From a virus, in the IMG/VR virus record IMGVR_UViG_3300031911_000002, positions 1 to 64,000 of that record: a DNA stretch of 64,000 nt. One strand, given 5' to 3'. Position 1 is the stretch's first letter. Each line of letters begins with the position of its first letter. The notes under the pieces were generated by a model, which made no database searches, was not told the origin of the DNA, and was given only the letters and a program-made list of their open reading frames with translations. Both the position numbers and the translations under genes were made by a program. Below, one piece after another: positions 10,862-60,276 of this stretch.

Positions 10862-11123
10862 CAGGCTGATCGACCCGCTGGCAGCGGCGCGCGAGGACGA
10901 GGTGAACCGGGGGATGCGGCTCAGCGGGTCGCCGGTCCGATTCTGCTTCCACCCGGACACGACCCTGGAGCACCTGCCCGGCGAGGGCACGCGCCGGTCG
11001 TGCGACTACTGCGCGACGGCCGTGTTCACGTACCCCGGTAGCTGCGCCACGGATCTGACGCCGTGGGCGTACCTCCCGGATGGATATACGGCGGCCGACG
11101 AGCCTCCCGTTACTGGTCGGTAG
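10854..11123 (+). CDS. Hypothetical protein
   Basis: Overlapping start; its 3' end runs into dispersed repeat copy 1. Confidence 0.45.
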   Translation: MGSRLIDPLAAAREDEVNRGMRLSGSPVRFCFHPDTTLEHLPGEGTRRSCDYCATAVFTYPGSCATDLTPWAYLPDGYTAADEPPVTGR

Positions 11124-11284
11124 CAACTACTGGCCCGACCTGGCCGAACAACGAACTCGCGGCGGGTGTCCGAGGAGACAGGGCACCCGCCGTTCGCTGC
11201 GGAGACGGCAACCTCGTGACGCCGCTACGCTACGCACCGGTAGATTTAGCTAAAGCGACTCCGGGTAACCGTATAGCTATACGG
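11076..11284 (+). repeat. Dispersed 209-bp element, copy 1
   Basis: Reverse complement of the copies at 26455, 49346 and 60068; bounded by 16-bp quasi-palindromes. Confidence 0.92.
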
Positions 11285-11310
11285 TCCGGCGGATGGAACA
11301 GGGAGCAACG

Positions 11311-12345
11311 ATGAAGGTCCTTCTGACCGGGGCGTCCGGGTTCGTCGGCAGCCACGTGCTGCGCCACATCCTCGTGAACACCGACTGGAGCGTGGTCGCC
11401 CCGGTCACGTTCCGGCACAAGGGCCTCCCGGCCCGCATCGCCTCGGCCGTCTGCGACCGGCCGGACTGGACGAGCCGGGTGGACACGGTCCACTGGGACC
11501 TGCGGTCGGTCGCGGACCCGCTCACCCTGCTCACGGTCGACGACTGTGACGTGATCATGAACGTGGCCAGCGAGTCGCACGTGGACCGGAGCATCGCCCA
11601 CCCCGGCCCGTTCATCCGGAACAACATCGACCTGATGCTCACCGTGCTGGAGGTCGCGCGGGTGGTCCGGCCGAAGCTGCTGCTCCAGATGAGCACCGAC
11701 GAGGTCTACGGGCCCGCCTACGGGGACCACAGGCACCACGAGTGGGAGGCCATCCTCCCCTCCAACCCCTACAGCGCGTCCAAGGCGGCCCAGGAGGCCA
11801 TCGCGATCAGCTACTGGCGCACCTACGGGGTGCCGCTCGTCCTGACCAACACCATGAACATCATCGGGGAGATGCAGGACCCCGAGAAGTTCCTCCCCAA
11901 GATCGTGAGGGGGCTGCGGGACCGGACCCCCGTCCCGGTCCACGTCGGCCCCGACGGCAACTCCGGCTCCCGGTTCTACCTGCACGCGCGCAACCTGGCG
12001 GACGCGTGGGTGTTCCTCGCGGAGCAGTACGCGGCGAACGGACCGGCCCTGTACGACGAGGGCGCGGAGCGGCCGGAGCGGTTCCACATCGTGGGGGAGC
12101 GGGAGATCTCGAACACCCGCCTGGTGCACTACGTCGGCCGGATCATGGGCCTGGACCGGTCCGAGACGGACGGCCTGATCCAGCCGGTGGGGTTCCACGC
12201 CACCCGGCCCGGTCATGATCTGCGCTACGCGCTGGACGGCTCCCTGATCGCCGGTCTCGGCTGGAGCGCCCCTGTGCCATTCGACGAGGGCCTGCGGCGC
12301 ACCGTGGCGTGGACCCTGGATCACCCCGAGTGGCTGGACCTCTGA
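11311..12345 (+). CDS. rmlB: dTDP-glucose 4,6-dehydratase-like extended SDR
   Basis: TGASGFVG, ASESHVDRSI, STDEVYG, PYSASK, RPGHDLRYALD. Confidence 0.85.
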   Translation: MKVLLTGASGFVGSHVLRHILVNTDWSVVAPVTFRHKGLPARIASAVCDRPDWTSRVDTVHWDLRSVADPLTLLTVDDCDVIMNVASESHVDRSIAHPGPFIRNNIDLMLTVLEVARVVRPKLLLQMSTDEVYGPAYGDHRHHEWEAILPSNPYSASKAAQEAIAISYWRTYGVPLVLTNTMNIIGEMQDPEKFLPKIVRGLRDRTPVPVHVGPDGNSGSRFYLHARNLADAWVFLAEQYAANGPALYDEGAERPERFHIVGEREISNTRLVHYVGRIMGLDRSETDGLIQPVGFHATRPGHDLRYALDGSLIAGLGWSAPVPFDEGLRRTVAWTLDHPEWLDL

Positions 12346-12362
12346 CGGGTTTGGGGATCTCC

Positions 12363-12378
12363 CGGTTTAGGTAAATAC
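12363..12378. promoter_or_regulatory. AT-rich quasi-palindromic operator-like site
   Basis: CGGTTTAGGTAAATAC; one of ten similar intergenic 16-mers. Confidence 0.6.
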
Positions 12379-12508
12379 CCCTCAGAGTGACGTCGGACCG
12401 CAGGATGGCGATGGGTCTGCGGCCCGACGTCCGGCGCCCTCCGCCCGGCCGGGTCGTGGGTCCCCGGCGACGGGGGAGGGCGCCCTCCAACCGTGACCAA
12501 GGACCAGG

Positions 12509-13330
12509 ATGCCCAGCGAAGCCATGAACACTCCTCCTGAACGTCCGTATCTCTCGCCCCTGGAGCGCCGGTACCTCTGGCTGCTGACCCAGGGCCACAC
12601 CGTGGGCGAGGCCGAGAAGATCCTCGGTATAGGGCGCACGCCCACCCTCGGGATGCGGGTCCGGGACAAGCTGGGGGCCGCGACCACGGCCCAGGCCACG
12701 TACAGGGCGGCCGTCCTCCAGCTGGTGGGCCCGGATCCCGAATGCGGCACGATGACCGGCTACCGCAGGCACAAGGGGCGCCAGGAGGACGTCTGCGAGG
12801 CGTGCCGTACGGAGTTCACCAGCTTCGTGGACCGGACCGGAGGTCTGTCGGCCCACCGTCGGCCGCAGCTCACGGAACCGGAGCTGTACCTGCTGCGCGC
12901 GTTCGACGCGGGCGCCAACTACAAAGCCCTGGCGCAGCGGTGGCGGATCAGCACCCGGACCCTGGACAAGGTGCGGGCCAGCCTGTACCGGAAGCTGGAC
13001 GTCCTGCACCACCCGCTGAAGGCACGCCGACAGGCGGCCCTGGAGGTGGGCCAGCGCCTGGGGTTCCTGCGCCCGGACCCGCTGGGGGCCCCGCCCCCGC
13101 CCCCTCCGGCCGAACCGTCCCCGCTCACCGAGCTGGAGGTGCACACTCTCGCGACGGTCGCCGACGGGACGTCCCTGTCACAGGCGGGCCGGAAGCTGGG
13201 CATCCCCGCGTCCTCCGTGGGGTCCCGTCTCGCGAGGGTCTACATCAAGCTGGACGTGGCGCACCACGGCCGGGGCCGGTGCCGACAGGCGGCCGTCAGG
13301 GAGGCCCGGCGCAGAGGGTACGAGGTCTGA
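12509..13330 (+). CDS. Transcription regulator with three LuxR-like HTH units and a Cys/His Zn motif
   Basis: LSPLE/LTEPE/LTELE repeats, each followed by an HTH and (Y)xKL; CGT..GYRRH...CEAC. Confidence 0.7.
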   Translation: MPSEAMNTPPERPYLSPLERRYLWLLTQGHTVGEAEKILGIGRTPTLGMRVRDKLGAATTAQATYRAAVLQLVGPDPECGTMTGYRRHKGRQEDVCEACRTEFTSFVDRTGGLSAHRRPQLTEPELYLLRAFDAGANYKALAQRWRISTRTLDKVRASLYRKLDVLHHPLKARRQAALEVGQRLGFLRPDPLGAPPPPPPAEPSPLTELEVHTLATVADGTSLSQAGRKLGIPASSVGSRLARVYIKLDVAHHGRGRCRQAAVREARRRGYEV

Positions 13331-13369
13331 CCGAGCGCAGCCCCGGCGGCCGTGGGGCATACTCCCGGC

Positions 13370-25643: not shown

Positions 25644-25951
25644 TCCTTCACGCGGAGCAGCGCTGGGTCTGCCCCAACTGTCCGGCCACGGCCGTGACGG
25701 AGGGGCGGACCAACCGTTTCCACCGCTGCACGGGCCTGCGCCTGCTCCTCGCGCCCATGGTCCTGGAGGGAACCCGCTGCAAGGTGGTGGCGCGGGAGCG
25801 CGAGGACTACGTGGGCCGGGAGACCGTACAGTGCGATGGCGAGGGGCGCCCGGTCGCCGCCATCATGACCGTGCGGGACGATGGCGAGGACTGCACCGTG
25901 CTGGCGCCTGCGGCCCGTATGAGGATGGTGTCCGATGGCGTGGAGCGCTAG
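25640..25951 (+). CDS. Hypothetical Zn-ribbon protein
   Basis: GTGA overlap; WVCPNC..FHRC..EREDYVG..RDDGEDC. Confidence 0.6.
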   Translation: MILHAEQRWVCPNCPATAVTEGRTNRFHRCTGLRLLLAPMVLEGTRCKVVAREREDYVGRETVQCDGEGRPVAAIMTVRDDGEDCTVLAPAARMRMVSDGVER

Positions 25952-26441
25952 CGCGATCTTCCGGGAGTGGCCCCGGTCCGTGATGGGACAGGGACAGACG
26001 GCGGCCGTTCTCCCGGCCGGGTACGCCGGACTGGGAGCCGACACCGTCAAGTGCGCCCTGTTCGGAGGCAACACCCCGGACAAGGACGCGGTCCTCGCGC
26101 AGACCGGCTACAACTCCGGCTCGTCCCAGTGGGTCACGGCGAACGAGAAGACGGGCGGGGCCGACTGGGTCTCCGGCGGCCGGACTCTGGGATCCAAGAC
26201 CCTGACCACCCCGTCCTCCGGGGTGTTCATGTTCGACGCGGCAGACCTGACGAGTGCGGCGACCGCCACGATGTCGAACGTCGAGGGGGCCCTGATCTAC
26301 GACGACACGATCACCGCCGGGACCGGCGGGGTGGCGGACCAGGGTGTCTGTTACCTCTGGTTCGGGGGCGCTCAGTCGGTCACCTCGGGGACGTTCTCCG
26401 TGATCTTCAACGCCGACGGACTGCTCCGGATCTCGGTTTAG
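25935..26441 (+). CDS. Putative virion structural protein
   Basis: GAGG RBS; KCALF, FDAAD, ALIYDD; Gly/Ser/Thr-rich. Confidence 0.6.
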   Translation: MAWSASAIFREWPRSVMGQGQTAAVLPAGYAGLGADTVKCALFGGNTPDKDAVLAQTGYNSGSSQWVTANEKTGGADWVSGGRTLGSKTLTTPSSGVFMFDAADLTSAATATMSNVEGALIYDDTITAGTGGVADQGVCYLWFGGAQSVTSGTFSVIFNADGLLRISV

Positions 26442-26454
26442 TTTATTCGTCCCG

Positions 26455-26663
26455 CCGGATACCTATCCGGTTACCCGGAGTCGCTTTAGCTAAATCTACC
26501 GATGCGTAGCGTAGCGGAAGCACGAGGTTGCGTTCTCCGCAGCGATCTGCGGACACCCTGTCTCCCCGGACACCCGTCCGGAGTTCGTTGTTCGGCCAGG
26601 TCGGGCCACAGATCGCTACCGGCCGGTAAGAGGCCGTAGGCCACGGCCCGTATATCCTTCCGT
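26455..26663 (-). repeat. Dispersed 209-bp element, copy 2
   Basis: Near-identical core to copies 3 and 4; intergenic and opposite in orientation to copy 1. Confidence 0.92.
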
Positions 26664-26675
26664 CGGGAGGTCGCC

Positions 26676-27467
26676 GTGACTGCTGACTTCGGGCCCTGTG
26701 AGAACTGGCCGATCCACTGGACGTGCCAGACGTCCTCGCTGGATCCGGCCGTGACCGGGTACGCCGTATCGATGGCGACGCGGGTGCTGTGGTCGCTCTC
26801 CGGCCGCCGGTTCGGCACTTGCCAGACCACGCTCCGCCCGTGCCGCAAGGACTGTTACGACTCCTGGCCGTGGGGGTGGACCGAGTGGGACAACTCCGTG
26901 CTCGGGACCTCGGTCTGGTCCTCGTACCGCTACTGGTTCCCGCTCGCCTGCGGTGCCTGCACCACCGGCTGCTCGTGCTCCCGCGTCTCTGAGGTCGTCC
27001 TCCCCTCCCCCGTCAACAGCATCGTCCAGGTGAAGGTCGACGGCACCCCGCTCGTCACCGGGGCGTACCGGGTCGACAACAACCGGCTGCTGGTACGTAC
27101 GGACGGCCAGGAGTGGCCTCTCTGCAACGATCTGAGCAAGGACGACACAGAGGCTGGCACGTGGTCCGTAACGGCCCTGTACGGCGAGGACGTGCCGGAG
27201 GGGGCCCGTCTCGCGATGGGTGAACTGGCCTGCGAGATCAGCAAGGCCGGAGCCGGTCAGGACTGCCGCCTTCCCCCCGGCGTCACCCAGCTCGTCCGGC
27301 AGGGTGTGACGATCCAGTACCCGGATGTCGGCCAGCTCCTGAAGGACGGCCGCACCGGCCTGTACCTCGTGGACATGTTCATCGCGGCGGAGAACCCTCA
27401 CGGCCTCACCCAGCGGGGCCGGGTCTACAGCGTGGACCGGGCCCTGAGCCGGAGGACGAACACATGA
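26676..27467 (+). CDS. Head-to-tail adaptor
   Basis: LWSLSGRRFG.C, ELACE, CRLP..VRQGVT, TGL..VD. Confidence 0.78.
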   Translation: MTADFGPCENWPIHWTCQTSSLDPAVTGYAVSMATRVLWSLSGRRFGTCQTTLRPCRKDCYDSWPWGWTEWDNSVLGTSVWSSYRYWFPLACGACTTGCSCSRVSEVVLPSPVNSIVQVKVDGTPLVTGAYRVDNNRLLVRTDGQEWPLCNDLSKDDTEAGTWSVTALYGEDVPEGARLAMGELACEISKAGAGQDCRLPPGVTQLVRQGVTIQYPDVGQLLKDGRTGLYLVDMFIAAENPHGLTQRGRVYSVDRALSRRTNT

Positions 27468-29047: not shown

Positions 29048-32000
29048 CATCCTGGTCGCCACAGGGTTCGTCCGGATCGAGTCGGACACCAAGCCCGCCC
29101 TGAAAGCGCTCAAGGGCTTCGGGTCCATCGCCGCCAGCGCGCTGACGACCACGCTCCTCCCGGCCACGGCTCTCGTGGCCACGGGGATCGGCGCGATCGG
29201 CGGCGCGCTGGCGTCCGCCGGAGCGGCGGCCGGAGCGTTCGGCGCTGCTGTCATCCCGCAGTTCCAGAAGATCACGGACGCGAACGAGAAGTACAAGACA
29301 GCCCAGGAGAAGAGCGCCAAGGCGGACCAGGCCAAGGCGTACGCCCAAAAGGTCGCCAAGAAGTTCGGCGTGGAGTACGGCGCCTCCATCAAGATCACGT
29401 CCAAGATGACGGACACCGCGCGCGAGGAGGCGCTGAAGTACAACAAGGCCCTGTCGGAGTCCAAGACGGCGTCCAACGCCGCGCGCAAGGCGCAGGACGA
29501 ATACAAGGCCAAGATGGCGGAGATGACCCCGGCGACGAGGGCGACCGCCAAGGAGTTCCTGGGGCTCAAGGACGACTTTGAACGGTGGTCCGACTCCCTC
29601 AGCGGCGCCACGATGCCGATCTTCACCCGCGCCCTGCAAGGGGTCCGCCGACTCCTGCCCAGCCTCACCCCGTTCGTCAGGTCGGCGGCCGGAGCGATCC
29701 AGGGATTCATGGACACCCTGGGGGAGGGGTCCGCCGGGCGGATCTTCCGCGAGTTCGGCGACAACATGCGCAAGAACGCCGGGGGTGCGCTCCGCGACTT
29801 CCTGTCCTTCGGCAAGGACATGGTGGCGGGGATCCTCGGGATCCTGAACGCGTTCGCCCCCTTCCAGGAGCGCGTGGGAGGGGGCATGGCCGAGATGGGC
29901 CAGCGGTTCGCCGACTGGAGCGCCAACCTGGGCTCCAGCGGGGGCTTCCAGACCTTCGTGCAGACCGCCGAGAACGCCGGGCCCAAGCTGGGGGATCTGT
30001 TTCGCTCCATCGCCGAGGCCATGGGGAAGATCTCCGACTCCGCCGGACCCCTGGCCGGGGTCGGAATCACCATCGCCGGTATCTTCGCGCAGATCATCGA
30101 CGCGATCCCCACCCCGGTCCTCCAGGTGCTGGTCCCCGCGATCCTCGCGGTGAACACAGCAATGAAGCTGTACGCGATCTACTCCGCTGCCGCGACAGCT
30201 GCCACGTGGCTGTTCACCACGTCGGTCACCACGAGCACGGGCGTGACCTACGCCAGCCGGGTCGTCCTCGTCGCGCACCGGATATCCCTCGTGGCGCACG
30301 CGCTGGCCAGCCGGATCGCGGCAGCTGCAACCGCCACCTTCAGCCTCGCGATGCGGGTCGCCTCCGGCGTCATGCTCGCCTTCCGGTACGGCCTCGTCGC
30401 GCTCCGTCTCGGTCTCGTGCTCACCGCGACCGGGTTCCGCCTGCTCGCCATCGCGATCATCAGTAACCCCATCGGACTGATCATCGCCGGAATCGCGCTG
30501 CTCGTGGGCGCCTTCATCCTCGCGTACAAGAAATCCGAGACGTTCCGCAACATCGTCAACAAGGCGATGGAGGGCGTGAAGAACGTGGCCGCCGCGATCG
30601 GCCGCTGGTTCGCCGGTCCCTTTGTCGACTTCTTCAAAAAGGCTTGGGACCTGTACTACAAGTTCCTGGTCCGGCCGTTCTTGTGGTTCTACACGGAAGC
30701 CGTGCCCGCAGCGGCCAAGTTCGTCTGGAACATCATCGTCCAGTACTGGAACTTCATCTGGGGCGCCGCTAAGACGGCCTGGGGTCTGTACTACAAGTTC
30801 CTGGTCAAGCCGTTCCTGTGGTTCTACCTGGAGGCCGTGCCGGGGGCCGCCAAGTTCGTCTGGAACAAGATCGTCCAGTTCTGGAACCTGATCGTCTCGG
30901 GGGTCCGGGCGGCGTGGGGTCTGTACCAGCGGTTCGTCATCCGGCCCATCATCAACTTCTTCACCCAGACGATCCCCGGCGCCGCGCGCGCCCTGCGCGA
31001 CCGGGTCGTGGGCGCCTGGAACGGCCTGCGCGACCGGGTCTCCGGAGTCTTCACCAGCATCAAGAACCGCGTCTTCAGTCCGATACGTACCTTTTTCACC
31101 CAGACGATCCCTGGCTGGGCCCGCACCCTGCGGGACAAGGTCAAAGGGTTCTTCTCCGACATGCGCGACGGCATCGGGGTGATCTGGAACGGGATCAAGA
31201 ACAAGGCCAAGTCGCCCATCAACTGGGTGCTGCGCAACGTGTGGAACAAAGGGATCGTCTCGGTCTGGGGGAAGATCGCAGGCTGGATCGGGATCAAGAA
31301 CGGGCTGAAGACGGTCAAGGAGCTGGCGGCCGGAGGGACGGTCGGCCGGTCCGGCATGGGGATCTTCAACCGGCCCACGGCCATCGTCGGCGAGGGCAAC
31401 CCGGCGTACCCGGAGTACGTGATCCCCACGGACCCGAAGTACGCCACCCGCGCGCGCGGGCTGTGGGAGGCGGCCGGAGCGCACTTCATGGAGGACGGGG
31501 GCATCCTCGGGACCCTCGGCAAGGCGGCCAGCAAGGTGACCGGGGCCGCGACCGGAGCGGCCAAGGGCGTCGCCGACTTCCTCGGGGACCCTGTCGGCAA
31601 GGCCAAGAAGCTGCTGCTGGCCTCCCTGTCGGGCATGTCCAAGCTGGGCAACTCCCCCTGGGTCAAGATGGCCACCAAGCTCCCCCGGATGGCCGTGGAC
31701 GGGCTCATCAAGGCGGTGAAGGACTCCGCCGGGGACATCCTCGGGGGCATCGGCAGCGCGGTCGGTCTCGGCTCCAGCGGGGGCTCCGGAGTGAAGAGGT
31801 GGGCCGGGGTCGTGCAGATGATGCTCCGGCAGGTCGGCCAGCCCGCCGCGTACACAGGCATCACGCTGCGCCGGATGAACCAGGAGTCTGGCGGCAACCC
31901 GACGATCGTCAACAAGTGGGACAGCAACTGGAAGGCCGGTCACCCGTCGGTCGGGCTGATGCAGGTGATCGGCCCGACGTTCCGTTCGTATGCGGGCAAG

Positions 32001-35138: not shown

Positions 35139-35677
35139 TGACCTGGTCCGCGCCCATGACGGCGGTCGCCGGAGCGACCTTCACGGCCGCCGAGTTCAAC
35201 CAGTACGTCCGGGACAACCTCAACGAAACGGCCCCGGCGAAAGCCACAGCCGCCTCCCAGCTGTTCGTCTCCACCGGGGCGAACGCGATCACGACCCGGT
35301 CCCCGAGCACCACGTCGATATCCACGAACGAGAACACCACGAGCACGAGCTACACCGACCTGACGACACCGGGTCCGTCCCTGTCCGTCGCCTGCGGGAC
35401 GATCGCGCTCGTCTACTTCGCCGCCAGCCAGGCCAACGACACGGCCAACTCAGCGTGCCTGTCCTCCGTGGAGGTGACCGGCGCGTCCTCGGTGTCCGCG
35501 TCCGACAGCTGGGCTCTGCTCTCCGACGGGGTACAGGCGGGCAACTTCGTGAGGTACGGGATGTTCCATGTCTTCACGGGTCTCACCGCCGGGACGAACA
35601 CCTTCACGATGAAGTACCGCGCCGGGTCGTCCACGGCCCGGTTCCAGAGGCGAGAGATCGCCGTCATCCCCCTGTGA
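35138..35677 (+). CDS. Tail fibre/minor tail protein, paralog 1
   Basis: MTWSAPMTAVAG..FTAA.FN.YVRDNL N-terminus. Confidence 0.7.
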   Translation: MTWSAPMTAVAGATFTAAEFNQYVRDNLNETAPAKATAASQLFVSTGANAITTRSPSTTSISTNENTTSTSYTDLTTPGPSLSVACGTIALVYFAASQANDTANSACLSSVEVTGASSVSASDSWALLSDGVQAGNFVRYGMFHVFTGLTAGTNTFTMKYRAGSSTARFQRREIAVIPL

Positions 35678-35684
35678 GGATCCC

Positions 35685-35981: not shown

Positions 35982-36553
35982 TGGCGTGGACAGCCCCGTT
36001 CACAGCGGTCGCCGGGTCCGTCTTCACGGCGGCGCAGTGGAACACCTTCATCCGGGACAACCTGGCCGAGACCATGCCGTCCCGAGCGACGTCCGCCGGG
36101 TCCTGGTTCGCCGCGTCCGACACGAACCGGATCGTCCAGCGCACCCCCGCGTCGATCATCGACACCCAGTCCGTCGACTTCACGTCCACGTCGTTCGGGG
36201 ACCCCGAGAACGAGAACTCCACGGAGCGCCCCTCCACCCCCGGCCCGGCCGTCACGGTCCTGACGGGGGTACAGGCTCTGGTGGGGTACCGCGTCAACAT
36301 CCGTAACGCGTCCGTCAGCGCCCGGTGCGAGGCCAGTTACGAGATCTCGGGGGAGACGAGCGTGGAGACGTCCAAGACGAGGTCCATCGGCTACTCCGTG
36401 TCCAACTCCGCATCCGGCCTGAACCTGCGGGCCGGGTGGATGGACCTCGCGACGGAGCTGACTCCGGGCCTGAACACCTTCACCCTCAAGTACAACGTCA
36501 GCTCCGGATCCGGCGTGGTCAACGACCGGCGCCTGTTCGTCGTCCCGCTCTAA
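35981..36553 (+). CDS. Tail fibre/minor tail protein, paralog 2
   Basis: MAWTAPFTAVAG..RDNL; LTPG.NTF.LKY C-terminus. Confidence 0.7.
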   Translation: MAWTAPFTAVAGSVFTAAQWNTFIRDNLAETMPSRATSAGSWFAASDTNRIVQRTPASIIDTQSVDFTSTSFGDPENENSTERPSTPGPAVTVLTGVQALVGYRVNIRNASVSARCEASYEISGETSVETSKTRSIGYSVSNSASGLNLRAGWMDLATELTPGLNTFTLKYNVSSGSGVVNDRRLFVVPL

Positions 36554-36563
36554 GGAGACCGCC

Positions 36564-37115
36564 GTGGCCTGGACAGCCCCCATGACTGCCATTGCCGGAG
36601 CCGTGTTCCAGGCCGCGCAGTTCAACACCTACGTCCGCGACAACCTCAACGAGACCGCACCGGCCAAGGCCACCACGCCCGGCTCCATCTTCGCCGTCTC
36701 GGGGACGAACCAGATCGCGGAGCGCATCCCCGGCGCCGCCATCGACACCGGCACCGCCACCTTCACGTCCACCACGTTCGCCGACCCGGCCACCGGCTCC
36801 GCCGGACCGTCCGTCACGGTCACGACAGGGGTGCAGGCGCTCGTCGGATACCGTTCCTACCTGGAGGTACCGTCCACGACGGCCCGTGTGGAGGCCAGCT
36901 ACTCGATCTCCGGGGCGACCACGCGCGCGGCCTCCACGACACGGTCCGTCGGGTATTCGGTGTCCAACAGCGTCAACGGCCTCAAGACCCGGACCGGCGT
37001 GGTGGACCTGGCCACGGGCCTCACGCCCGGATCGAACACGTTCAAGCTGGAGTACAACGTCAGTTCCGGGACCGGCACGGCCGCCGACCGGAGGCTGTGG
37101 GTGCTCCCCCTGTGA
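36564..37115 (+). CDS. Tail fibre/minor tail protein, paralog 3
   Basis: MAWTAPMTAIAG..RDNL; AAGGAG RBS. Confidence 0.7.
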   Translation: MAWTAPMTAIAGAVFQAAQFNTYVRDNLNETAPAKATTPGSIFAVSGTNQIAERIPGAAIDTGTATFTSTTFADPATGSAGPSVTVTTGVQALVGYRSYLEVPSTTARVEASYSISGATTRAASTTRSVGYSVSNSVNGLKTRTGVVDLATGLTPGSNTFKLEYNVSSGTGTAADRRLWVLPL

Positions 37116-43323: not shown

Positions 43324-43396
43324 TGCCGCCCGCAGGGATCGAACCTGCGGCCTCCGGGGTTTCACTCCGGCGCTCTCCCGACTGAGCTAGGGCGGC
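43324..43396 (-). tRNA. tRNA-Phe(GAA) with atypical anticodon stem-loop
   Basis: GCCGCCC/GGGCGGC acceptor, GCTC/GAGC D-stem, CCGGA-GTGAAAC-CCCGG anticodon arm, GCAGG-TTCGATC-CCTGC T-arm; CCA not encoded. Confidence 0.8.
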
Positions 43397-43690: not shown

Positions 43691-44887
43691 TCAGCGGAGC
43701 AGGAGCGCGGTGGCGCGCTCCTCCATCTGGAACGCCAGGTCGGCGTCGATGTCGGCGGACTGCGCCGCAGCGGTGACGGCCTGGACGAGGCCGCCGCGCG
43801 TGGTCTGCCCTCCCTTGATGAACGCGGTGAGGACGTCGTCGTACAGGGCCGGGCACTCCAGCTTCTGAGTGATCTCCTTGACGGCCCGCTCGGTCTCCTT
43901 GACCTCGTGGCCCGCCTGCTCGGTCAGCTCCGCGAGGACCTTGCGCATGTAGTCGACGTCCAGGAACGTCCGCACCGCGTCGGCCGCCTGCGAGGTGATG
44001 AGCTGGAGGTTGGCCTGCCGGGTCTCCTCGCTGTAACGGATCAGTCCATCGTCCAGCCGGGCCCCGAGGTGACGGGCCGCGACCGCGTCCCGCTTGATCG
44101 TCATCCCGTTGGTGCAGACCTCCACGACGAGCCGGGGGGTGACGGAGAACGAGCCGTGGCCGGTCTCGCTGTTGGAGAGGACGAATCCGGCGAACACCGT
44201 GGGGTTGTCGGAGCCGGTCTGCCCGGTGAACGGGGAGCGGTACCCCTTGAGCAGCTCCGGGGCGAGGGCCTTGATCTCCGGCGCCGTGACCGTGACGTAC
44301 ATCTTGCGGCCGGTGAGGTCGCACTGGGCGATGTTGTCGGCCCCCAGACCGGCCGCCTGCATCCCCCGCAGGGCCGCGCGCAGGGTCTCGACGTGGTCCA
44401 CGATCTTGTACGAGTTGGACAGGAGCGCGCGGGCCGTACCCGTCTCCCCGCCGTCCGCGTCCTTAAGCGCGCGCACGAGCACCGACTTGTCGAGCGGCTC
44501 CCGCATCCACTCGCTGCCGTCCCCGGTCGCCTGGACCAGGGACCCGCCCTTGCGCTTGCCATGGATCAGGCCGTTGAGTGTGCCGTCCACGATGTCCGTC
44601 CAGCCCTCCGCCCGCAGCTTGCGGAGCATCCGGCCGGTGACGATCCCCCGGCCGAGACGCTCGGCCAGTCCCTCGTCGAACACGTCCGTGGAGGTGAATT
44701 CCTGCACGACCGGCGTGACTCCGTCGGCGGTGAGCCGGGGCTCCAGGTCGGAGCGGAGGACGCGGAGGTTGCCGCCCCCGAAGCAGAGGTTGGTCGCCGG
44801 GACGACGACGTCCACCTTGCGGTCCTGCTGCTCGTCCAGCGTCGCCAGGAGGGTCTCGAAGTCGGTCTTGCGCAGGGTGTCGGTCAT
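43691..44887 (-). CDS. DUF932/DUF945-like protein
   Basis: RALLSNSY..VDH, GFVLSNSETG.GS...PR.....CTNGM, H.G motifs. Confidence 0.75.
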   Translation of the reverse strand: MTDTLRKTDFETLLATLDEQQDRKVDVVVPATNLCFGGGNLRVLRSDLEPRLTADGVTPVVQEFTSTDVFDEGLAERLGRGIVTGRMLRKLRAEGWTDIVDGTLNGLIHGKRKGGSLVQATGDGSEWMREPLDKSVLVRALKDADGGETGTARALLSNSYKIVDHVETLRAALRGMQAAGLGADNIAQCDLTGRKMYVTVTAPEIKALAPELLKGYRSPFTGQTGSDNPTVFAGFVLSNSETGHGSFSVTPRLVVEVCTNGMTIKRDAVAARHLGARLDDGLIRYSEETRQANLQLITSQAADAVRTFLDVDYMRKVLAELTEQAGHEVKETERAVKEITQKLECPALYDDVLTAFIKGGQTTRGGLVQAVTAAAQSADIDADLAFQMEERATALLLR

Positions 44888-45969: not shown

Positions 45970-46038
45970 TGGGCCTGGCCGGGTTCGAACCGGCGTCACG
46001 GGAGGGGTCCCCCTGCTCTGCCTCTGAGCTACAGACCC
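45970..46038 (-). ncRNA. tRNA-like RNA with 4-nt loop replacing the anticodon loop
   Basis: GGGTCTG TA GCTC AGAGGCA GAGC A GGGGG-ACCC-CTCCC GTGAC GCCGG-TTCGAAC-CCGGC CAGGCCC A. Confidence 0.75.
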
Positions 46039-46518: not shown

Positions 46519-46920
46519 TCAGCGGTTCAGGTTGTGGTGCTGCGCCCACACGGGGCACGTCCCGGCGTGCAGGGTCGGGCTGGGCTCCCCGCGACGGCCG
46601 CAGGTGCAGGACGCGCCCTCCGACATCTGGCGGACCTCGTCCCGGTACTCACCCTGGTAGTAGGCGAGCTGGTGCCGCGCCATGTCGGCCGCCGTGGTGT
46701 CGCCCCACTCCGCCGGGTCCACGGCCGCGACCGCCTTGGCGGCCGACTCCGCGAGGATCTCCGTGGCGCTGGCGTAGTCGGTCTGCTCGTCCAGAGCGGC
46801 GAATACCCCGGAGTTGTCCAGGGTGTTGAAGGCTGCGATGACCTCCGGCCGCTCCCGGTCCTCCGACGTGATGGAGCGGAGTACGGCCAGAGCCTTGATC
46901 GTCTCGTCGCTGTAGGTCAT
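46519..46920 (-). CDS. Hypothetical protein
   Basis: GACCACGGA-AGGA leader; C-terminal CTC..H..C. Confidence 0.55.
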   Translation of the reverse strand: MTYSDETIKALAVLRSITSEDRERPEVIAAFNTLDNSGVFAALDEQTDYASATEILAESAAKAVAAVDPAEWGDTTAADMARHQLAYYQGEYRDEVRQMSEGASCTCGRRGEPSPTLHAGTCPVWAQHHNLNR

Positions 46921-47003
46921 GGTCGATCCTTCCGTGGTCGCCTGGCTCATCAGGACCGGGTGGCGCCCGGCCGACGGCCCCGCCGGAGCGGGGCCGTTTC
47001 GCC

Positions 47004-47243
47004 TCAGTCTCGCGAGTCGCGCTCCAGGCGTCCCTCGTACCCGGCCGCCCACCCGTTCCCCCAGTGGTGCCACTGCACGGCCGACATCAGCCGGAGGGCC
47101 TCCACGTAATCCAGTCCGGCCGCCTCCGCCAGCCGGACCAGGACGTCCTCGGCCTCCGACCCCTGCTTGCCCTCCGTCCGGTCTCCGACCGGCTGACCGG
47201 CGATGCGGCGCGCTTCGTCCAGGATGTGCGTGATCTCGGGCAT
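47004..47243 (-). CDS. Hypothetical protein
   Basis: GACCACGGA-AAGAGG leader. Confidence 0.5.
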   Translation of the reverse strand: MPEITHILDEARRIAGQPVGDRTEGKQGSEAEDVLVRLAEAAGLDYVEALRLMSAVQWHHWGNGWAAGYEGRLERDSRD

Positions 47244-49309: not shown

Positions 49310-49345
49310 TCCGTGGTCTCCGCCTCAACGCGCTTATACGTAAGG

Positions 49346-49555
49346 CGGTATATCTATCCGGTTACCCGGAGTCGCTTTAGCTAAATCTACCGGTGCGTAG
49401 AGTAGCGGAAGCACGAGGTTGCCGTCTCCGCAACGAACTGCGGACACCCTGTCTCCTCGGACACCCGGCCGGAGTTCGTTGTTCGGCCAGGTCGGGCCAC
49501 AGATCGCTACCGGCCGGTAAGGAGCCAGCCGGTCCGGGGCCGGATGGATATACGG
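49346..49555 (-). repeat. Dispersed 210-bp element, copy 3
   Basis: Same core as copies 1, 2 and 4; intergenic. Confidence 0.92.
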
Positions 49556-49568: not shown

Positions 49569-49937
49569 TCACGATCCGGACACCTCGCCCTTGCCCCGCT
49601 TCCGCAGGGTGGTGACCGGCTCCAGGGCACGGACGGAGTCGGCGAATAGACCCGTGGCACTGAAGCGGACCCGACGGACCTCCGTGGGCATCACGGCCCC
49701 CTCCGCACGCTTCCCCGGCAGTCCGCCTTCCGGGACCCGGCGCCACTGCGGGGTGAACGACCCGAAGTTGGTGAGGCTGACGCGGTACCCGGCGGCCACG
49801 TGGCGGCCGATGATGTCGAGCACGGCGTGCAGAACGTCCTCGGACGTCGCCGTCCGGAGGTCCACCTCGACGTCCAGCAGCTCCGCCAGCCGGGTGAAGT
49901 TGAGGTTGGTCTCAGGGCGTGCGATCTTCTTTTCCAT
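49569..49937 (-). CDS. HU/IHF-like DNA-binding protein
   Basis: VLHAVLDII...V..G.RVSLTNFGSF...R...VRF.A..LF. Confidence 0.75.
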   Translation of the reverse strand: MEKKIARPETNLNFTRLAELLDVEVDLRTATSEDVLHAVLDIIGRHVAAGYRVSLTNFGSFTPQWRRVPEGGLPGKRAEGAVMPTEVRRVRFSATGLFADSVRALEPVTTLRKRGKGEVSGS

Positions 49938-51415: not shown

Positions 51416-52369
51416 CTAGATGGCGATGAAGGCGTACGGGTGGCCCAGGGCGTACCGCTCCGCAAGGACGTCCTGCACGTTCTCCGGGGCGTCCAGGGCG
51501 ACGGCCGTTCCGGGGGCGGTCGAGTAGACGTCGGTCTCGCTGACGATCCAGGACGTCCGCTCGTCGCGGGCGCGGGGCTCACGGGGGTCGCGCGCGCTCA
51601 TCAGCCGGTCGTACGCGTCCCGGCCGATCGTCTCGGGGGAGCCGTCCCAGTTCTGCACCTCCATCGTGGTGCAGACCTCCAGCTCCCCCTCGCTGGCGCG
51701 GGTGGTGCCTCCGGCGGCCAGCGAGGGGTCGTCCAGCTTCACGATGACGCTCCAGCCGGACGGGCCGAACGCGCGGGTGCCCTCCACCACGGTCCCCGTG
51801 AAGCCGTGCCGCGTGTGGCGGACCGGGCCGGTGACCGGAGCGGTCTGCGCCTGCGCTACGAGGGCCGCCTTGGTGGGGGCCGCCTTGCGGACCCGGCGGT
51901 GCAGGGTGGTGTGGGTGACCCTGTCGAACCGGAAGCTGCGGACGTCGCCGTCACGGCGGTCGTCCTCGGCCCGCACGATGTAGTCCCCGCCCTGGGTGCG
52001 GTACAGGGACTGCGGGCGGACCCGGCGCCGGGAGACTTCGCCGGTCGGCTTGACATACCGGATGCTCATCTCGCGGCCGGTACGGATCGCGGTGGTGACG
52101 CGTAGCATGTCGTCCTCGCTGGCGTAGACGACCGTGTCGACGACGCCGCCCGTGACGAGCGCCCACACGGCGAGGCCGGGGAAGTCGTAGAACCAGACCT
52201 CCCCGGCCTCGTTGAAGTCGGCCGCCGTCTCCAGGTGGGCCGTGGCCATGTCGTCCACGATCCACTCCGCCTCGCCCGCCTGCTTGGGCGTCCACACGGC
52301 CTCCACGCTCGCCTGGCCGTTCACGAAGTTGATGGTGGCGACGGTCCGGCTTCCGGTGTTCTCTCGCAT
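51416..52369 (-). CDS. WYL-domain protein
   Basis: AIRTGREMSIRY....GEVSRRRVRP..L......YIVRA.D......RSFRFDRV. Confidence 0.8.
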   Translation of the reverse strand: MRENTGSRTVATINFVNGQASVEAVWTPKQAGEAEWIVDDMATAHLETAADFNEAGEVWFYDFPGLAVWALVTGGVVDTVVYASEDDMLRVTTAIRTGREMSIRYVKPTGEVSRRRVRPQSLYRTQGGDYIVRAEDDRRDGDVRSFRFDRVTHTTLHRRVRKAAPTKAALVAQAQTAPVTGPVRHTRHGFTGTVVEGTRAFGPSGWSVIVKLDDPSLAAGGTTRASEGELEVCTTMEVQNWDGSPETIGRDAYDRLMSARDPREPRARDERTSWIVSETDVYSTAPGTAVALDAPENVQDVLAERYALGHPYAFIAI

Positions 52370-52420
52370 CGTCCTGGTCCCTTGGTCTGTGGTCGGTTGT
52401 TGTACTCCCCCAATCATTCC

Positions 52421-52463: not shown

Positions 52464-53384
52464 TCACTCGTTCAGCTCCTCCAACGATCGCCGGATACCC
52501 TCCTCCAGGCTGATCTTGGGGGCGTAGTACCCGAGCAGGAGCCGGTTGGGGTCCCCCACCCGGTACGCCACGCCCTGCGGGGCGTCCGGGTTCGGGCGGA
52601 TCTCCGCTGTCTTCCCCGCCTCCCGGAGCATCATCGTGGCCAGCAGGGTGAACGGTGTCGGCTCTCCTGTGCAGAGGTTCACCGGCTGCACGGTGCCGGA
52701 CTCCGCGACCGCGAGGGCCCCGGCGACGATGTCATCCACATGGATCCAGTCCCTCACGCAGTCCCCGCACCACAGCTCCAGGGGTTGACCGGGTTGCAGG
52801 GCGCGCACCCGCTCCAGGATGGCCCGGAAGGGATACGACGGGTCCTGGTCGGAGCCGTACCCGCTGAAGGGCCTGACCACGGTCACCGGCACCCCGGCCG
52901 CACGCAGCTTCCCGGCGAGCATCTCCCCGGTGACCTTGCTCCAGCCGTAGACCTCGTCGGGCGGTCCCAGGCTGAGCCGGGCACAGTCCTCGTCCAGACG
53001 GCTCTCATAGGTCACGGCCTGCTGAAGGGCCACCGGGTACGCCGCGCTGGAGCTGATGTACAGCACCCGGCCCGGCCGCGCGACGGCCGCCCACCGGAAC
53101 ATCTCCGCGTCGATCGACAGGGACTCCGCCGTGGCCAGCGGGTCCCGCTCGATGGTCTCCCGGCCGCCGACGACGGCGGCGCAGTGCACGACGAGGTCGA
53201 ATCCAGGGCTGTTCTCCCCGGCCCTCCTGTGGATCAGGTCGTTCTGGAAGTACCTCCGGCAGTCCTGCGCAGAGGACGCCTTGACGTCCAGGCCGTAGAC
53301 CTCCCAGCCCCGGCGCCGCAGCTCCGTCGTGAAGTGCCGCCCCAGGAAGCCCCGGTCGCCCGTGATCAGTGCGCGCATCACCAT
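52464..53384 (-). CDS. NAD-dependent NDP-sugar epimerase/dehydratase
   Basis: ITGDRGFLG, VVHCAA, SSSAAY, YGWSK, RDWIHVDD. Confidence 0.85.
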   Translation of the reverse strand: MVMRALITGDRGFLGRHFTTELRRRGWEVYGLDVKASSAQDCRRYFQNDLIHRRAGENSPGFDLVVHCAAVVGGRETIERDPLATAESLSIDAEMFRWAAVARPGRVLYISSSAAYPVALQQAVTYESRLDEDCARLSLGPPDEVYGWSKVTGEMLAGKLRAAGVPVTVVRPFSGYGSDQDPSYPFRAILERVRALQPGQPLELWCGDCVRDWIHVDDIVAGALAVAESGTVQPVNLCTGEPTPFTLLATMMLREAGKTAEIRPNPDAPQGVAYRVGDPNRLLLGYYAPKISLEEGIRRSLEELNE

Positions 53385-53977
53385 CTGTCGTTCCTTCCGC
53401 TCGTGTTGCCGGGGTGCCAGTGCCAGGTCCACGTCCGGCGGGGCAGGTGGGAGAACGTCGCTCCGGCGCCCACGAGCCGCTCCCAGGTCCCCCAGTCATC
53501 GCACGGGTTCTCCGGAGGTCCCTTGGGGGTGAACCCGCCGATCTCCCACAGCAGGTCCGTACGGGCGAGGACCGTGATCGGGATGTAGTTGAACTCCCGC
53601 AGGCGCTCCTCGCTGAAGGGGGACCCCTCCACGCCGGGCCACGGGTCGAATCCGCCGGAGACGTTGAACCAGGGGTAGACGACGTCCGCCCCCGTCTCCT
53701 CCGCGTGCGCCAGCAGGCACTCCACGTGGTCCGGGTTCCACTCGTCGTCGTCGTCCAGGAACGCAGCCCACGTCGTGCCGACCCCGGACACGGCCCGCGT
53801 CCGGTTCAGGGCGGAGCCCCGGCGCGCGTGGTCCACGCTGACGCTGATCGCGTCGACCGGCCGCGTCTGGCTCAGGACCGAATCGAGAGCACGGCGCAGC
53901 TTGCCGTCGGCCGCCCGTGGCGGGATCGCGGGGATGACGGCCGTGACGCCGGGCCGCATGCGCGAGGGCCGGGTCAC
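53378..53977 (-). CDS. GT2 glycosyltransferase
   Basis: AVIP..R..LRRALDSV..Q, AFLDDDD, DDWG.W. Confidence 0.85.
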   Translation of the reverse strand: MTRPSRMRPGVTAVIPAIPPRAADGKLRRALDSVLSQTRPVDAISVSVDHARRGSALNRTRAVSGVGTTWAAFLDDDDEWNPDHVECLLAHAEETGADVVYPWFNVSGGFDPWPGVEGSPFSEERLREFNYIPITVLARTDLLWEIGGFTPKGPPENPCDDWGTWERLVGAGATFSHLPRRTWTWHWHPGNTSGRNDRW

Positions 53978-54627
53978 AGCGAGACCGCCATCCACAGCTG
54001 GAAGACGTAGGCGTCCTCCCACCCCTTGGTCGCCTCCGGTCGGAGGATCTTCAGCTCCAGGGGGTCCCACCCGTTGTCCTGGAGCATCCGGTGCAGGTCC
54101 GCCTGGTCCCAGCCCCAGTAGTGCTCGGTGTTGCCGGACCCCACGCGCTCCCCGAGGGGCGTGGACAGGAACAGGTACCGGGACCAGTCGGCCGCGTCCG
54201 CCAGGATCCGGTCGGGATCCTTCACGTGCTCCAGCGTCTCGCTGAGGATCAGCAGGTCCACCGGAGCGTCTACCGGGAGCTGATGCAGGCTGTCCGGCAG
54301 AGGCTCCGGCCTCAGGATCGTCGCCGGGGCCCGGCACGACACGGCCGCCGACGCGGGGACCCCGTTGAGGTCCCCGAACCAGGCGTGGTCCAGCTTGAGG
54401 GTCGTGCTGATCATGTTGAGCAGGGCCCCGTCCCCGCAGCTGAGATCGGCCGCCGTCCGGATCCTCGACCCGTACCGCTCGATCAGGTCGGCCGACGCCT
54501 TGATCCGCTCGATGTGATCGGCCCACCGGTCGTGCCGGTAGCCGTCCGGGTACGTCCGGCGGTAGAGGGCGCGCTCGTCCCCAGGGGACCGGAAGTCCTC
54601 CTCGGGGCGCAGTCGGTACTTAGCCAC
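53974..54627 (-). CDS. SAM-dependent methyltransferase
   Basis: ADLSCGDG motif I, LSETLEHV.DP, LSTP, EHYWGW. Confidence 0.75.
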   Translation of the reverse strand: MAKYRLRPEEDFRSPGDERALYRRTYPDGYRHDRWADHIERIKASADLIERYGSRIRTAADLSCGDGALLNMISTTLKLDHAWFGDLNGVPASAAVSCRAPATILRPEPLPDSLHQLPVDAPVDLLILSETLEHVKDPDRILADAADWSRYLFLSTPLGERVGSGNTEHYWGWDQADLHRMLQDNGWDPLELKILRPEATKGWEDAYVFQLWMAVSL

Positions 54628-55324
54628 GGCCGTACTCCTTGTTGACGGTCCTCAGCAGAGCCTCGAACTTGACTCCGTCCCTGAACGCTTCCCACGCCAG
54701 GCGGTCCGCCTGGTCCACGGAGGAGTCGTTGACGGCGGCGTAGCGGTCGTCCCACTGAGCCTTACCGGCCACGGGGTGCAGGTGCTCGATGACGACGTCG
54801 TCCCGGTACCGCAGTCCGCCCACAGCCTCCCCGAGGTGCTTCCAGAAGTTGTCGAGGTACAGGTGGCGCATCACCTGCGGAGCCATGATCCCCATCGCCC
54901 GGATCATCCTCGACTGCATGAACACCGCTGTCGGCAGGGCCGCGCCCTGGAGCAGATCGTTGCCGTAGGCGATGCGGGGCTCCAGGCTGTCCAGCTCCGT
55001 GATCATCTGCTCGTCCCACCCACGGGTCCGGGGCAGGTGGTCGTCCCCCATGAACCCGACGTAGTCGAACGCGGCGGCGTACCGGCGCGCAGTGAAGTTG
55101 AGCGGGAAGCACAGCCCTCCGCCTCCGGCCTGGTCCATGACGAGGAGCCGCGTGAGGGCCCCGTCATCGAGCAGGGCCCTGTACTCCTCCAGCTTCGGGT
55201 CGTCCGGGTCGGCCACGAACACGGCAGCGGCGCCCAGGACGGTCGTGTCCCTGAACGCCGCTTCCAGCCGGGCCGCATTCTCCGGCCGTCCCCTGGTGGG
55301 GACGACCACAACGAGATCGGTCAC
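54620..55324 (-). CDS. GT2-like glycosyltransferase
   Basis: VVVPTRGRP, GFMGDD, HLYLD, IEHLHP. Confidence 0.8.
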   Translation of the reverse strand: MTDLVVVVPTRGRPENAARLEAAFRDTTVLGAAAVFVADPDDPKLEEYRALLDDGALTRLLVMDQAGGGGLCFPLNFTARRYAAAFDYVGFMGDDHLPRTRGWDEQMITELDSLEPRIAYGNDLLQGAALPTAVFMQSRMIRAMGIMAPQVMRHLYLDNFWKHLGEAVGGLRYRDDVVIEHLHPVAGKAQWDDRYAAVNDSSVDQADRLAWEAFRDGVKFEALLRTVNKEYGRG

Positions 55325-58103: not shown

Positions 58104-58105
58104 GG

Positions 58106-58615: not shown

Positions 58616-58636
58616 GATCTGTCCTTCCGTGTGCGG

Positions 58637-59596: not shown

Positions 59597-59620
59597 GACC
59601 CTGTCCTCTCTTCCGTGGTC

Positions 59621-59636
59621 CGGTTTCCTTAAATCG
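59621..59636. promoter_or_regulatory. Operator-like 16-mer in the leader of the tra operon
   Basis: CGGTTTCCTTAAATCG; a minus-strand CATACT -10-like box lies just upstream. Confidence 0.55.
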
Positions 59637-59714
59637 GTTGGTCGAGTATGGCATGTCCGCTGGGACGTCCCGGTAAACCCGGACAGTCCTGTCCCGTGTC
59701 CTGTCCCCGGACAC

Positions 59715-59752
59715 AGCAGAGCCCCGGAGGGACGTCCCTCCGGGGCTCTGTC
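59715..59752. terminator. Long perfect hairpin
   Basis: CAGAGCCCCGGAGGGAC/GTCCCTCCGGGGCTCTG palindrome after the 59757 stop. Confidence 0.55.
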
Positions 59753-59756
59753 CGGA

Positions 59757-60038
59757 TCAGACCCCGAAGCTCCTCAGGGCCATGTCCTCCTCCACGACAC
59801 CGGACAGCTCCCGGACAAAGAACGCGAGCAGCGCCTTGTCCCGCAGGGACATCTTCCGGACGAGACGCACGGCCTTGTCCCGGTCGTCCGCGAGGACAGC
59901 GAGGAACACCTGCACCGCGCCGACGTCCTCGCGCGGGACGGCGAGGGTGTCCCCGGTGAGTGTCCCGCCGACGGGACTGAAGGGCGGGTAAGCGTCCTGG
60001 GGACGCCGGGGGATCTCCGGCTGACGGTTTTCGCTCAT
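59757..60038 (-). CDS. Hypothetical protein
   Basis: GACCAAGGAG leader; directly downstream of repeat copy 4. Confidence 0.55.
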   Translation of the reverse strand: MSENRQPEIPRRPQDAYPPFSPVGGTLTGDTLAVPREDVGAVQVFLAVLADDRDKAVRLVRKMSLRDKALLAFFVRELSGVVEEDMALRSFGV

Positions 60039-60067
60039 GATCTCTGCTCCTTGGTCTATTCGGTCCG

Positions 60068-60276
60068 GCGGATACCTATACGGTTACCCGGAGTCGCTTT
60101 AGTTAAATCTACCGGTGCGTAGCGTAGCGGCGTCACGAGGTTGCCGTCTCCGCAACGAACTGCGGACACCCTGTCTCCTCGGACACCCGGCCGGAGTTCG
60201 TTGTTCGGCCAGGTCGGATGGCAGATCGCTACCGGCCGGTAAGAAGGGGCCGGTCGGCCGCCGTATAACTACGCGC
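60068..60276 (-). repeat. Dispersed 209-bp element, copy 4
   Basis: Core nearly identical to copy 3. Confidence 0.92.

Follow-up and report, generated by a model that had tools for sequence, protein, structure and literature searches.

Dispersed 210-220-bp non-coding elements with palindromic ends in uncultured phages, and their probable association with one orphan ParB-like protein

KorB and Noc are orphan CTPase clamps of the ParB family with dispersed palindromic sites. The P1-type parS, by comparison, is a composite centromere of less than 100 bp in which a site for IHF lies between the ParB boxes; it is single, is located downstream of parB and works with ParA. Short non-coding intergenic repeats with repeat-like ends, found in either orientation, constitute another class, to which the miniature inverted-repeat transposable elements (MITEs) and the Correia and ERIC elements belong. 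The nearest described case, in a literature search of partial coverage, is that of the Cluster O mycobacteriophages (PMC4351075), actinobacterial phages in which a dispersed palindromic repeat occurs together with a ParB-like gene, as in the phage studied here. Its IMG/VR virus record (IMGVR_UViG_3300031911_000002; 75,955 bp, estimated completeness 92%) carries dispersed copies of an element of 210-220 bp within bases 1-64000, a stretch of 64,000 nucleotides to which we refer as the window. By sequence comparisons, this element belongs to a conserved non-coding family that, among records at least 60% complete, is confined to phages with one orphan ParB-like protein.

A preliminary description of the window, made from its letters alone, had placed four dispersed copies at 11076-11284 (one orientation) and at 26455-26663, 49346-49555 and 60068-60276 (the other). 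These coordinates were borne out by alignment, by a repeat finder, which recovered the same four places, and by a search of the full 75,955-bp record, which contains exactly four copies, 11-23 kb apart. The copies are thus real, but the length originally given, 209-210 bp, is short by ~12 nt on one side, where a conserved extra half-site is situated (extended coordinates in Table 1). The mean column identity among the four copies is 83%, flanks included, and a core of ~170 nt is almost invariant. They had been called essentially intergenic and, indeed, the element is non-coding and fills the gap between genes. In what follows, the strand of copies 2-4 is taken as the canonical strand.

Searches with nhmmer, seeded with the four copies, identified diverged homologues in related viral contigs, close to their terminase genes. 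Enlarged by means of a sequence-only covariance model, two degenerate DNA patterns and a rebuilt hidden Markov model (HMM), the family comprises 48 distinct sequences from related uncultured phages and metagenome contigs, 41 of which are full length (scores of at least 40 bits). Where G000 refers to the phage of the window and the other G numbers to its relatives, there are five copies in G005, four in G023 and two in each of G003, G006, G007, G021, G022, G031, G045 and G046. No known family had been recognised from the sequence, and the homology and Infernal/Rfam checks gave the same answer, for the element matches neither an Rfam family nor a deposited phage: the window contains no Rfam match at the gathering score, seven diverse copies have none at E up to 1, and blastn of one copy against the deposited phages gave no match. 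Exact core strings had 0 matches in viral contigs and, in genome contigs, nhmmer found no true element among the matches listed for an over-degenerate pattern (at least 120 stretches; best 15.7 bits). A literature search of partial coverage found no such element described.

Read along the canonical strand, the element begins with an outer half-site, (C/T)AT(A/T)CG, followed by a 16-bp palindrome (GTATA..TATAC type) and by a variable stretch ending in GTA. The next block, TTTAGCTAAA in this genome, is rich in A+T in many copies; it leads to TTAC..CGTAG.GTA, of which the CGTA, and indeed the complete CGTAG, is present in 37 of 37 non-redundant copies. Further downstream, AGGTTCCCTTCT..GGAGCGAAC precedes a central hairpin with a conserved base, GCGAAC/GTTCGC, and a freely variable upper part; the window copies likewise share the base (GCGAAC/GTTCG(C/T)) and differ in the upper stem. 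The hairpin is followed by CAGGTCAG, with GGTC in 36 of the 37 copies, by a variable G+C-rich stretch and by the second palindrome. The internal motifs listed in the preliminary description, i.e., TTTAGCTAAA, a CCGCA..TGCGG-like site, TACCGGCCGGTA and two GGACACCC, are all readable in the four-copy alignment, where copy 4 carries TTTAGTTAAA and copy 1 deviates in the last two of these motifs.

The distances between the conserved blocks are almost fixed. In all 41 full-length copies, the left palindrome is separated from CGTAG by 48-49 nt and CGTAG from GGTC by 93-95 nt. The third distance, from GGTC to the right palindrome, amounts to 40-41 nt in three copies, 50-52 nt in 32 and 60-62 nt in six, without intermediate values. 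Because the element tree has short and long forms in no fewer than six separate positions, the steps of ~10 nt must have arisen repeatedly. Repeated steps of this size are what a helical-phase constraint on duplex DNA would predict.

That 16-bp quasi-palindromes bound the element could be confirmed by scanning the window with CCGTATANNTATACGG, allowing up to three mismatches: there are seven matches, every one at an element end, where 0.38 are expected and where none of 100 shuffles reaches seven (Table 1). The eighth element end, to the right of copy 2, is more degenerate. These palindromes are conserved in sequence and none of them stands isolated in the window; they form pairs at a distance of ~193 bp and mark both ends of a 210-bp composite.

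Stop codons occur in all six frames in 27 of the 37 non-redundant copies and no frame is common to the copies, for which reasons a coding element was rejected. In orthologous pairs, the element is 79-90% identical, whereas the 400 bp that flank it on each side reach 62-84%, and its identity is the higher one in five pairs out of five. Judging by these comparisons, the element is non-coding and under selection.

Genes in the relatives were called with a crude GC3-based script for open reading frames (ORFs) rather than with a gene finder. By these calls, 27 of the 41 copies are located between co-directional genes antisense to the canonical strand and nine between two sense genes, the remaining five being in mixed or open surroundings. 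The gaps around the element are typically 1-30 nt, with a stop codon on one side and a ribosome-binding site on the other. Copy 1 sits just upstream of the epimerase gene that heads the terminase/structural operon. Copy 2 had been said to oppose its flanking genes, which is right in so far as copies 1, 3 and 4 share one strand relation to their neighbours and copy 2 has the other; it is the only one of the four whose canonical strand is the sense strand of the neighbouring genes. Its orthologue in G005 has the identical orientation, and four further copies are oriented in the same way, directly upstream of an ORF of 264-270 amino acids; this ORF is the head-tail adaptor gene in the window, with an orthologue in G005, and was matched by length alone in the other three. 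As a matter of fact, G005 has orthologues of all four sites (two upstream, of the terminase region and the adaptor gene, and two downstream, of the HU-like gene and a glycosyltransferase gene), all in identical orientation, at a protein identity between the two phages of ~70%. The orientation switches only twice round the genome, in G000 (-,+,+,+) and likewise over the orthologous sites of G005. The direct copies 3 and 4 bracket a sugar/modification block on the minus strand, with genes for a WYL-domain protein, a nucleotide-sugar epimerase, a methyltransferase and two glycosyltransferases (51416-52417, 52464-53432, 53974-54627, 54620-55324 and 60269-60961).

When all predicted proteins were compared with those of 13 relatives, one gene was found to be present in six of six element-bearing and in none of six element-free complete records, as well as in G029. 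This gene, which runs past the end of the window (Table 1), encodes a ParB-like protein of 277 amino acids. It occurs in eight of 30 terminase relatives (G003, G005, G006, G012, G021, G022, G023 and G029). With the count limited to records at least 60% complete, it accompanies the element in eight of eight element-bearing records (G000, G005, G021, G022, G023, G031, G045 and G046) and is absent from all 11 element-free ones (G009, G010, G011, G013, G017, G020, G024, G025, G027, G028 and G030), so that no record has the element without the gene; three of those 11 show R1 matches of 43-59 nt (E 0.002-0.008), the one in G025 being unconfirmed by a better HMM. Element-bearing fragments that are less than 45% complete (G001, G002, G004, G007 and G047-G050) lack the gene, as expected of fragments, and provide no test. 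In a forward test, G045 (complete) and G046, both found by DNA pattern alone, proved to carry the ParB-like gene. Moreover, in a distant clade, the element is located downstream of the gene on the same strand, at 25 nt (G023), 119 nt (G031) and ~1,150 nt (G022).

The 277-amino-acid protein is matched by the Pfam family DUF6551 (48 bits; cut-off 26.8) and by PHROG 1033, "ParB-like partition protein". It has an LDGQTR motif, and the DGQHR-domain model TIGR03187 scores 32.9 bits, below the cut-off of 58.85. The top Foldseek matches of its AlphaFold2 model (predicted local distance difference test, 86.7) are Noc, ParB and KorB; in VIA-align, the N-domain of this predicted model is aligned with ParB, Noc and KorB at Z 8.4-10.3, with a root-mean-square deviation (rmsd) of 2.3-3.2 Å over 91-109 residues. 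Used as a query for related loci, the single protein retrieved nothing and the alignment A4 found relatives; a PDB sequence search with A4 returned a designed repeat protein only (E 0.008). Phage DUF6551 fusions bind CTP or ATP, and the available passages of the 2025 survey that describes them give neither a function nor a target (PMC12704722). A match to CbiA/ParA (PF01656), the one family searched for a ParA, is lacking from the 75,955-bp record (92% complete), with the control positive in 14 of 14 genomes.

The preliminary description had offered a structured RNA or single-stranded DNA (ssDNA) element, a phased protein scaffold and a MITE-like unit. The scaffold is the best supported of these because the spacing is kept within 1 nt, the spacer changes in ~10-nt steps and the element co-occurs with a ParB-fold protein; the structured RNA is weakly supported, and MITE-like behaviour is partly seen. 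Of the functions suggested for a scaffold, partition is the nearest by protein family, but no ParA was found. The sequence-conserved palindromes, the 1-nt precision of the spacing, the ~10-nt steps, the occurrence in either orientation, the weakness of the RNA signals and the co-occurrence, sometimes adjacency, of the ParB-fold gene together favour a phased cis-acting DNA platform on which the orphan ParB-like protein of the phage would assemble, a proposal that we put forward tentatively, at slightly less than an even chance.

The underlying mechanism could be as follows. The ParB-like protein, consisting of a ParB-CTPase N-domain and the helical DUF6551 domain, and possibly aided by the HU/IHF-like protein of the phage, would recognise, as dimers, the GTATA..TATAC end palindromes and the inner subsites that contain CGTA. 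The fixed distances would place each bound protein on a defined face of the helix, and thereby allow a higher-order complex to form at four to five places in the genome. Such a complex, possibly after nucleotide-dependent clamp loading, might act on the neighbouring DNA, e.g., on its transcription, compaction or protection, by analogy with KorB, Noc, VirB and ParB. The central hairpin may be extruded as a cruciform, or may act in single-stranded or transcribed DNA. In a more far-reaching version, which we regard as doubtful, the phage DUF6551 branch of the ParB-CTPase fold would here have its first cognate DNA site. The element would then serve as a helically phased loading platform of 210 bp, repeated at four to five operon boundaries of a lytic phage, in which two palindromes and inner CGTA subsites are combined with a hairpin capable of extrusion; from it, an orphan nucleotide-switch clamp, helped by an HU/IHF-like protein of the phage, would organise or regulate the whole genome without ParA. 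Orphan ParB-fold proteins are common in phages, and the element would be a conserved, countable DNA partner by which the question of the function and target of the DUF6551 proteins becomes testable. If the link holds true, ParB-type clamps would function within lytic phage genomes, at sites with an architecture unlike the known ones of 13-16 bp. Regardless of its function, the element is a clear case of non-coding phage DNA under strong constraint of length and phase.

Several observations weigh against a platform for the ParB-like protein. The co-occurrence depends on few independent evolutionary events: in a tree of TerL and portal proteins, the genomes with element and gene form two clades, split by genomes with neither, and element and gene change together at two to three points. 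G031 was itself found via the protein, and the gene is kept in G029, which has only a truncated copy, and in G032, which has only a partial match. No element was detectable in ten records with remoter DUF6551 homologues (26-33% identity), nor an analogous repeat within 20 kb in seven such loci (18-21 kb). The distance from the gene to the nearest copy is 3.6-5.3 kb in G000, G005 and G006. As to the protein, the helical C-terminal half (residues 126-277) can be aligned with Noc (7nfu) and with KorB (8qa9) in whole-chain comparison alone, at an rmsd of 5.2-7.3 Å, and offers but a candidate helix-turn-helix (HTH). The ~10-nt steps could also result if a hairpin of RNA or ssDNA gained or lost a 5-bp stem extension. 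Lastly, the platform model leaves the compensatory central hairpin and the conserved non-palindromic blocks unexplained, where a ParB site is normally ~16 bp. Because this hairpin and these blocks are outside a simple analogy with parS, readings as RNA, as a mobile element and as an ssDNA signal are kept alive.

A structured non-coding RNA, which we consider unlikely though still a serious contender, could be the product of an independent small RNA gene on the canonical strand, with a conserved TAGNGT as its -10 box and a GC-rich hairpin before the right palindrome as terminator, or else be a cis-acting processing or antitermination signal in a polycistronic mRNA. The central hairpin speaks for RNA: over 13 pairs in 21 distinct sequences, 74.5% of the cells pair, compared to 68.6% in shuffles (0 of 500 reach the observed value) and 25-43% when the pairing is slid, and there is compensatory change in eight of the 13 pairs, from which we take the hairpin to be real. 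The invariance of CGTAG and the several conserved non-palindromic blocks agree with an RNA as well. Beyond the hairpin, however, the consensus folds are shallow, RNAalifold giving -8.3 kcal/mol on one strand and -6.2 kcal/mol on the other for 12 sequences, and -6.6 and -8.5 kcal/mol for 17, over more than 200 columns; pair probabilities averaged over 37 sequences recover the central hairpin alone, on both strands, and a fixed-column covariation scan yielded nothing else. The three inner-stem changes noted in the preliminary description, when read in the copy-1 direction, do all produce G-U pairs in copies 2-4, consistent with an RNA from one strand, but this does not generalise: over the 37 non-redundant members, the energy of the central hairpin is lower on the canonical strand in 17 and on the reverse strand in 19, with one tie (p 0.19), and that of the whole element divides 21 versus 16 (p 0.42). 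Three conserved blocks, D, E and F, do form the more stable folds on the canonical strand (p 0.019, 0.0025 and 1.5e-5, respectively), which may simply reflect their G+T richness there. In the two copies scanned, we found no sigma-70-like promoter and one terminator-like hairpin, inside copy 2 only; the lack of an Rfam match adds to the case against RNA. As for the orientation, an RNA gene of its own would tolerate either one, whereas a cis-acting RNA should hold one orientation to transcription and nine of the 41 copies are inverted.

Mobility would account for other traits. If the element were a MITE-like, non-autonomous mobile element, the palindromic ends would be its terminal repeats, and it would either be without function for the phage or owe its mobility to a factor acting in trans, perhaps the ParB-fold protein; we think this improbable. 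Its two ends are related quasi-palindromes, in the manner of terminal inverted repeats, and close relatives carry it only patchily, there being six complete or near-complete ones (G009, G010, G013, G017, G024 and G025) with no copy at E up to 0.1. A search for empty sites in related phages, as had been proposed, revealed one, at the adaptor-gene position in G009, where the orthologues of the genes flanking copy 2 are ~18 bp apart and the element would fit exactly between stop codon and ribosome-binding site; at the same site, G029 harbours an internally deleted copy of ~115 bp. Furthermore, the four copies of this genome, together with those of G001, cluster by genome in the element tree, which indicates homogenisation. 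Against mobility, the copies of G003, G004, G005 and G007 cluster by site, the four sites are orthologous between G000 and G005, the element is more conserved than the flanking genes, its internal spacing holds within 1 nt across very divergent sequences, and none of 37 copies has a target-site duplication, there being only chance 3-mers and one 6-mer. A Y1 transposase is absent from the genome (other transposase families were not searched), and the idea of a palindrome-associated transposable element (PATE) of the IS200/IS605 type was rejected on this ground. The least probable alternative, in our opinion a very remote one, is an ssDNA signal, i.e., a hairpin related to priming or replication, the orientation of which follows fork movement instead of transcription. 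The compensatory hairpin without preference for an RNA strand is compatible with it, and the two orientation switches in G000 and G005 would fit two replication arms. Nevertheless, the GC skew is flat, with no origin or terminus, the conserved sequence is mostly outside the hairpin, the ~10-nt steps and the sequence-conserved palindromes point to duplex DNA, and the link with the ParB-like gene would be left unexplained.

Two other genes follow the element in their distribution, less strictly than the ParB-like gene. The HU/IHF-like gene adjoins a copy in G000 and G005, is present in G006 and G023, and occurs in none of seven compared records without a full-length element; its product is a possible accessory DNA-bending factor. 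The DUF932 protein was found in G005, G022, G023 and G029. By contrast, a weak ParB_N match at 6237-6431 (+), in ORF 6072-6941, does not track the element, since 11 of the 13 relatives, element-bearing and element-free ones among them, have tblastn matches to this ORF; it may encode a dioxygenase activator like the one described in the available portions of PMC13229309. This ORF is located beside a thymidine hypermodification cluster on the plus strand (6913-7836, 8513-9286 and 9290-10186), with genes for an amino-acid:DNA transferase, a P-loop nucleotide kinase 3 and a Tet/JBP dioxygenase. Modification loading, which had been among the suggested functions, finds no support, and in its Tet/JBP form was rejected, as cluster and element do not co-occur: G010 and G025, which have no element, also possess the Tet/JBP, kinase and transferase genes, and G021-G023, which carry the element, lack them.

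The genome (G+C, 69.7%) is read on the plus strand from 1 to ~40 kb, with genes for a family-A DNA polymerase with a LAGLIDADG insert, the modification genes, and those for epimerase, large terminase, portal and head-tail adaptor, and on the minus strand from 40.8 to 73 kb. Since its large terminase is at most 44% identical to that of any deposited phage, the best being Streptomyces phage mu1/6, it belongs to an uncultured lineage, probably one of phages of actinobacteria, where the host is deduced from sequence. The polymerase ORF (66-3854, +; 1,262 amino acids) has LAGLIDADG homing-endonuclease matches at residues 113-181, which suggests an intein or an inserted endonuclease. The leftward region includes two tRNA genes, 43324-43396 (-) and 45970-46038 (-), and a type II hammerhead ribozyme match (46936-47004, -; 44.6 bits, above the Rfam gathering score) inside a predicted ORF of 184 amino acids (46519-47073, -) that has homologues in relatives. 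G005 has two such matches, also above the gathering score, at 408-470 (-; 51.2 bits) and 800-861 (-; 43.9 bits) of locus L073, i.e., at ~4.6-5.0 kb in G005. Three related stretches of 155-223 nt at 35139-36787, ~600-850 nt apart and 62-71% identical, are probably paralogous small genes, and a 123-nt tandem pair lies at 30636-30893 inside an ORF of 1,113 amino acids. In a viral contig with a remote DUF6551 homologue (L316), four repeats of ~29 nt at 3566-3801, spaced by 61 nt, resemble a small CRISPR array.

Table 1. Coordinates of the element copies, of their parts and of the genes discussed with them (positions in the window, unless indicated otherwise).
Feature	Position	Strand	Remarks
Copy 1 (W1)	11076..11296	- (canonical strand)	outer extra half-site 11285-11296 included
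Copy 2 (W2)	26443..26663	+	between head-region gene 25935-26441 and head-tail adaptor gene 26676-27467
Copy 3 (W3)	49334..49555	+	directly downstream of HU/IHF-like gene
Copy 4 (W4)	60056..60276	+	directly downstream of glycosyltransferase gene (60269-60961, -)
Perfect 16-mer end palindrome (example)	11269..11284	.	CCGTATANNTATACGG scan
Other end palindromes	11076-11091, 26455-26470, 49346-49361, 49540-49555, 60068-60083, 60261-60276		CCGTATANNTATACGG scan
Central hairpin region, copy 1	11147-11202	-	
Central hairpin region, copy 2	26537..26592	+	
Central hairpin region, copy 3	49428-49483	+	
Central hairpin region, copy 4	60150-60205	+	
ParB-fold/DUF6551 gene, 3' end	63890..64000	-	whole gene = genome 63890-64723, 277 amino acids, past window end
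HU/IHF-like DNA-binding protein gene	49569..49937	-	adjoins copy 3
DUF932 / PHROG 1362 gene	43691..44887	-	presence tracks element in near-complete genomes

Compared with the MITEs and the Correia and ERIC elements, the element is likewise intergenic, found in either orientation and polymorphic for presence and absence, with homogenisation of copies; unlike them, it has no target duplication, occupies orthologous sites across diverged phages, keeps a strict spacing and is conserved above its neighbours. With ParABS, the phage shares short palindromes of ~16 bp (seven against 0.38 expected) and a ParB-fold protein on the same replicon, but not a ParA match. Like the P1 parS, the element is composite and has a defined orientation, it is found downstream of the ParB-like gene in G023, G031 and G022, and an HU/IHF-like gene lies beside one copy; it differs in being larger and multicopy, and in that no ParA was found.

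DndB, a ParB-like regulator with a DGQHR domain, binds two TACG-N10-CGTA palindromes, according to the portions of the report consulted (PMC4507180). The phage protein has an LDGQTR motif and a DGQHR match that stays below the cut-off (32.9 versus 58.85 bits). CGTA and TACG are recurrent and positionally conserved tetramers of the element, enriched 3.4-4.5x in G000, G005 and G021 and 1.2-2.1x in G022 and G023. Their arrangement in the element, CGTA-N6-TACG and TACG-N9-CGTA, is unlike the N10 boxes of DndB, and no dnd genes were found among the phage ORFs scanned.

The systems of KorB with OB (plasmid RK2) and of Noc with NBS resemble the present one in that a ParB-fold protein without ParA is combined with several palindromic sites over one replicon; KorB and Noc are also among the top structural matches of the phage protein model. 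KorB acts at a distance on transcription, as stated in the part of the report available (PMC11790492). The sites of KorB, Noc and VirB (virS) are, however, stand-alone short palindromes, whereas each phage palindrome terminates a 210-bp composite that also contains conserved inner blocks and a hairpin, and the C-terminal half of the phage protein is DUF6551, by sequence outside the HTH family of ParB and KorB. For the Cluster O mycobacteriophages, the passages of the report at hand contain no tested link between the repeat and the protein (PMC4351075). Their unit, as given there, is a bare 17-bp inverted repeat in high copy number, while the element described here is a composite of 210-220 bp in two to five copies.

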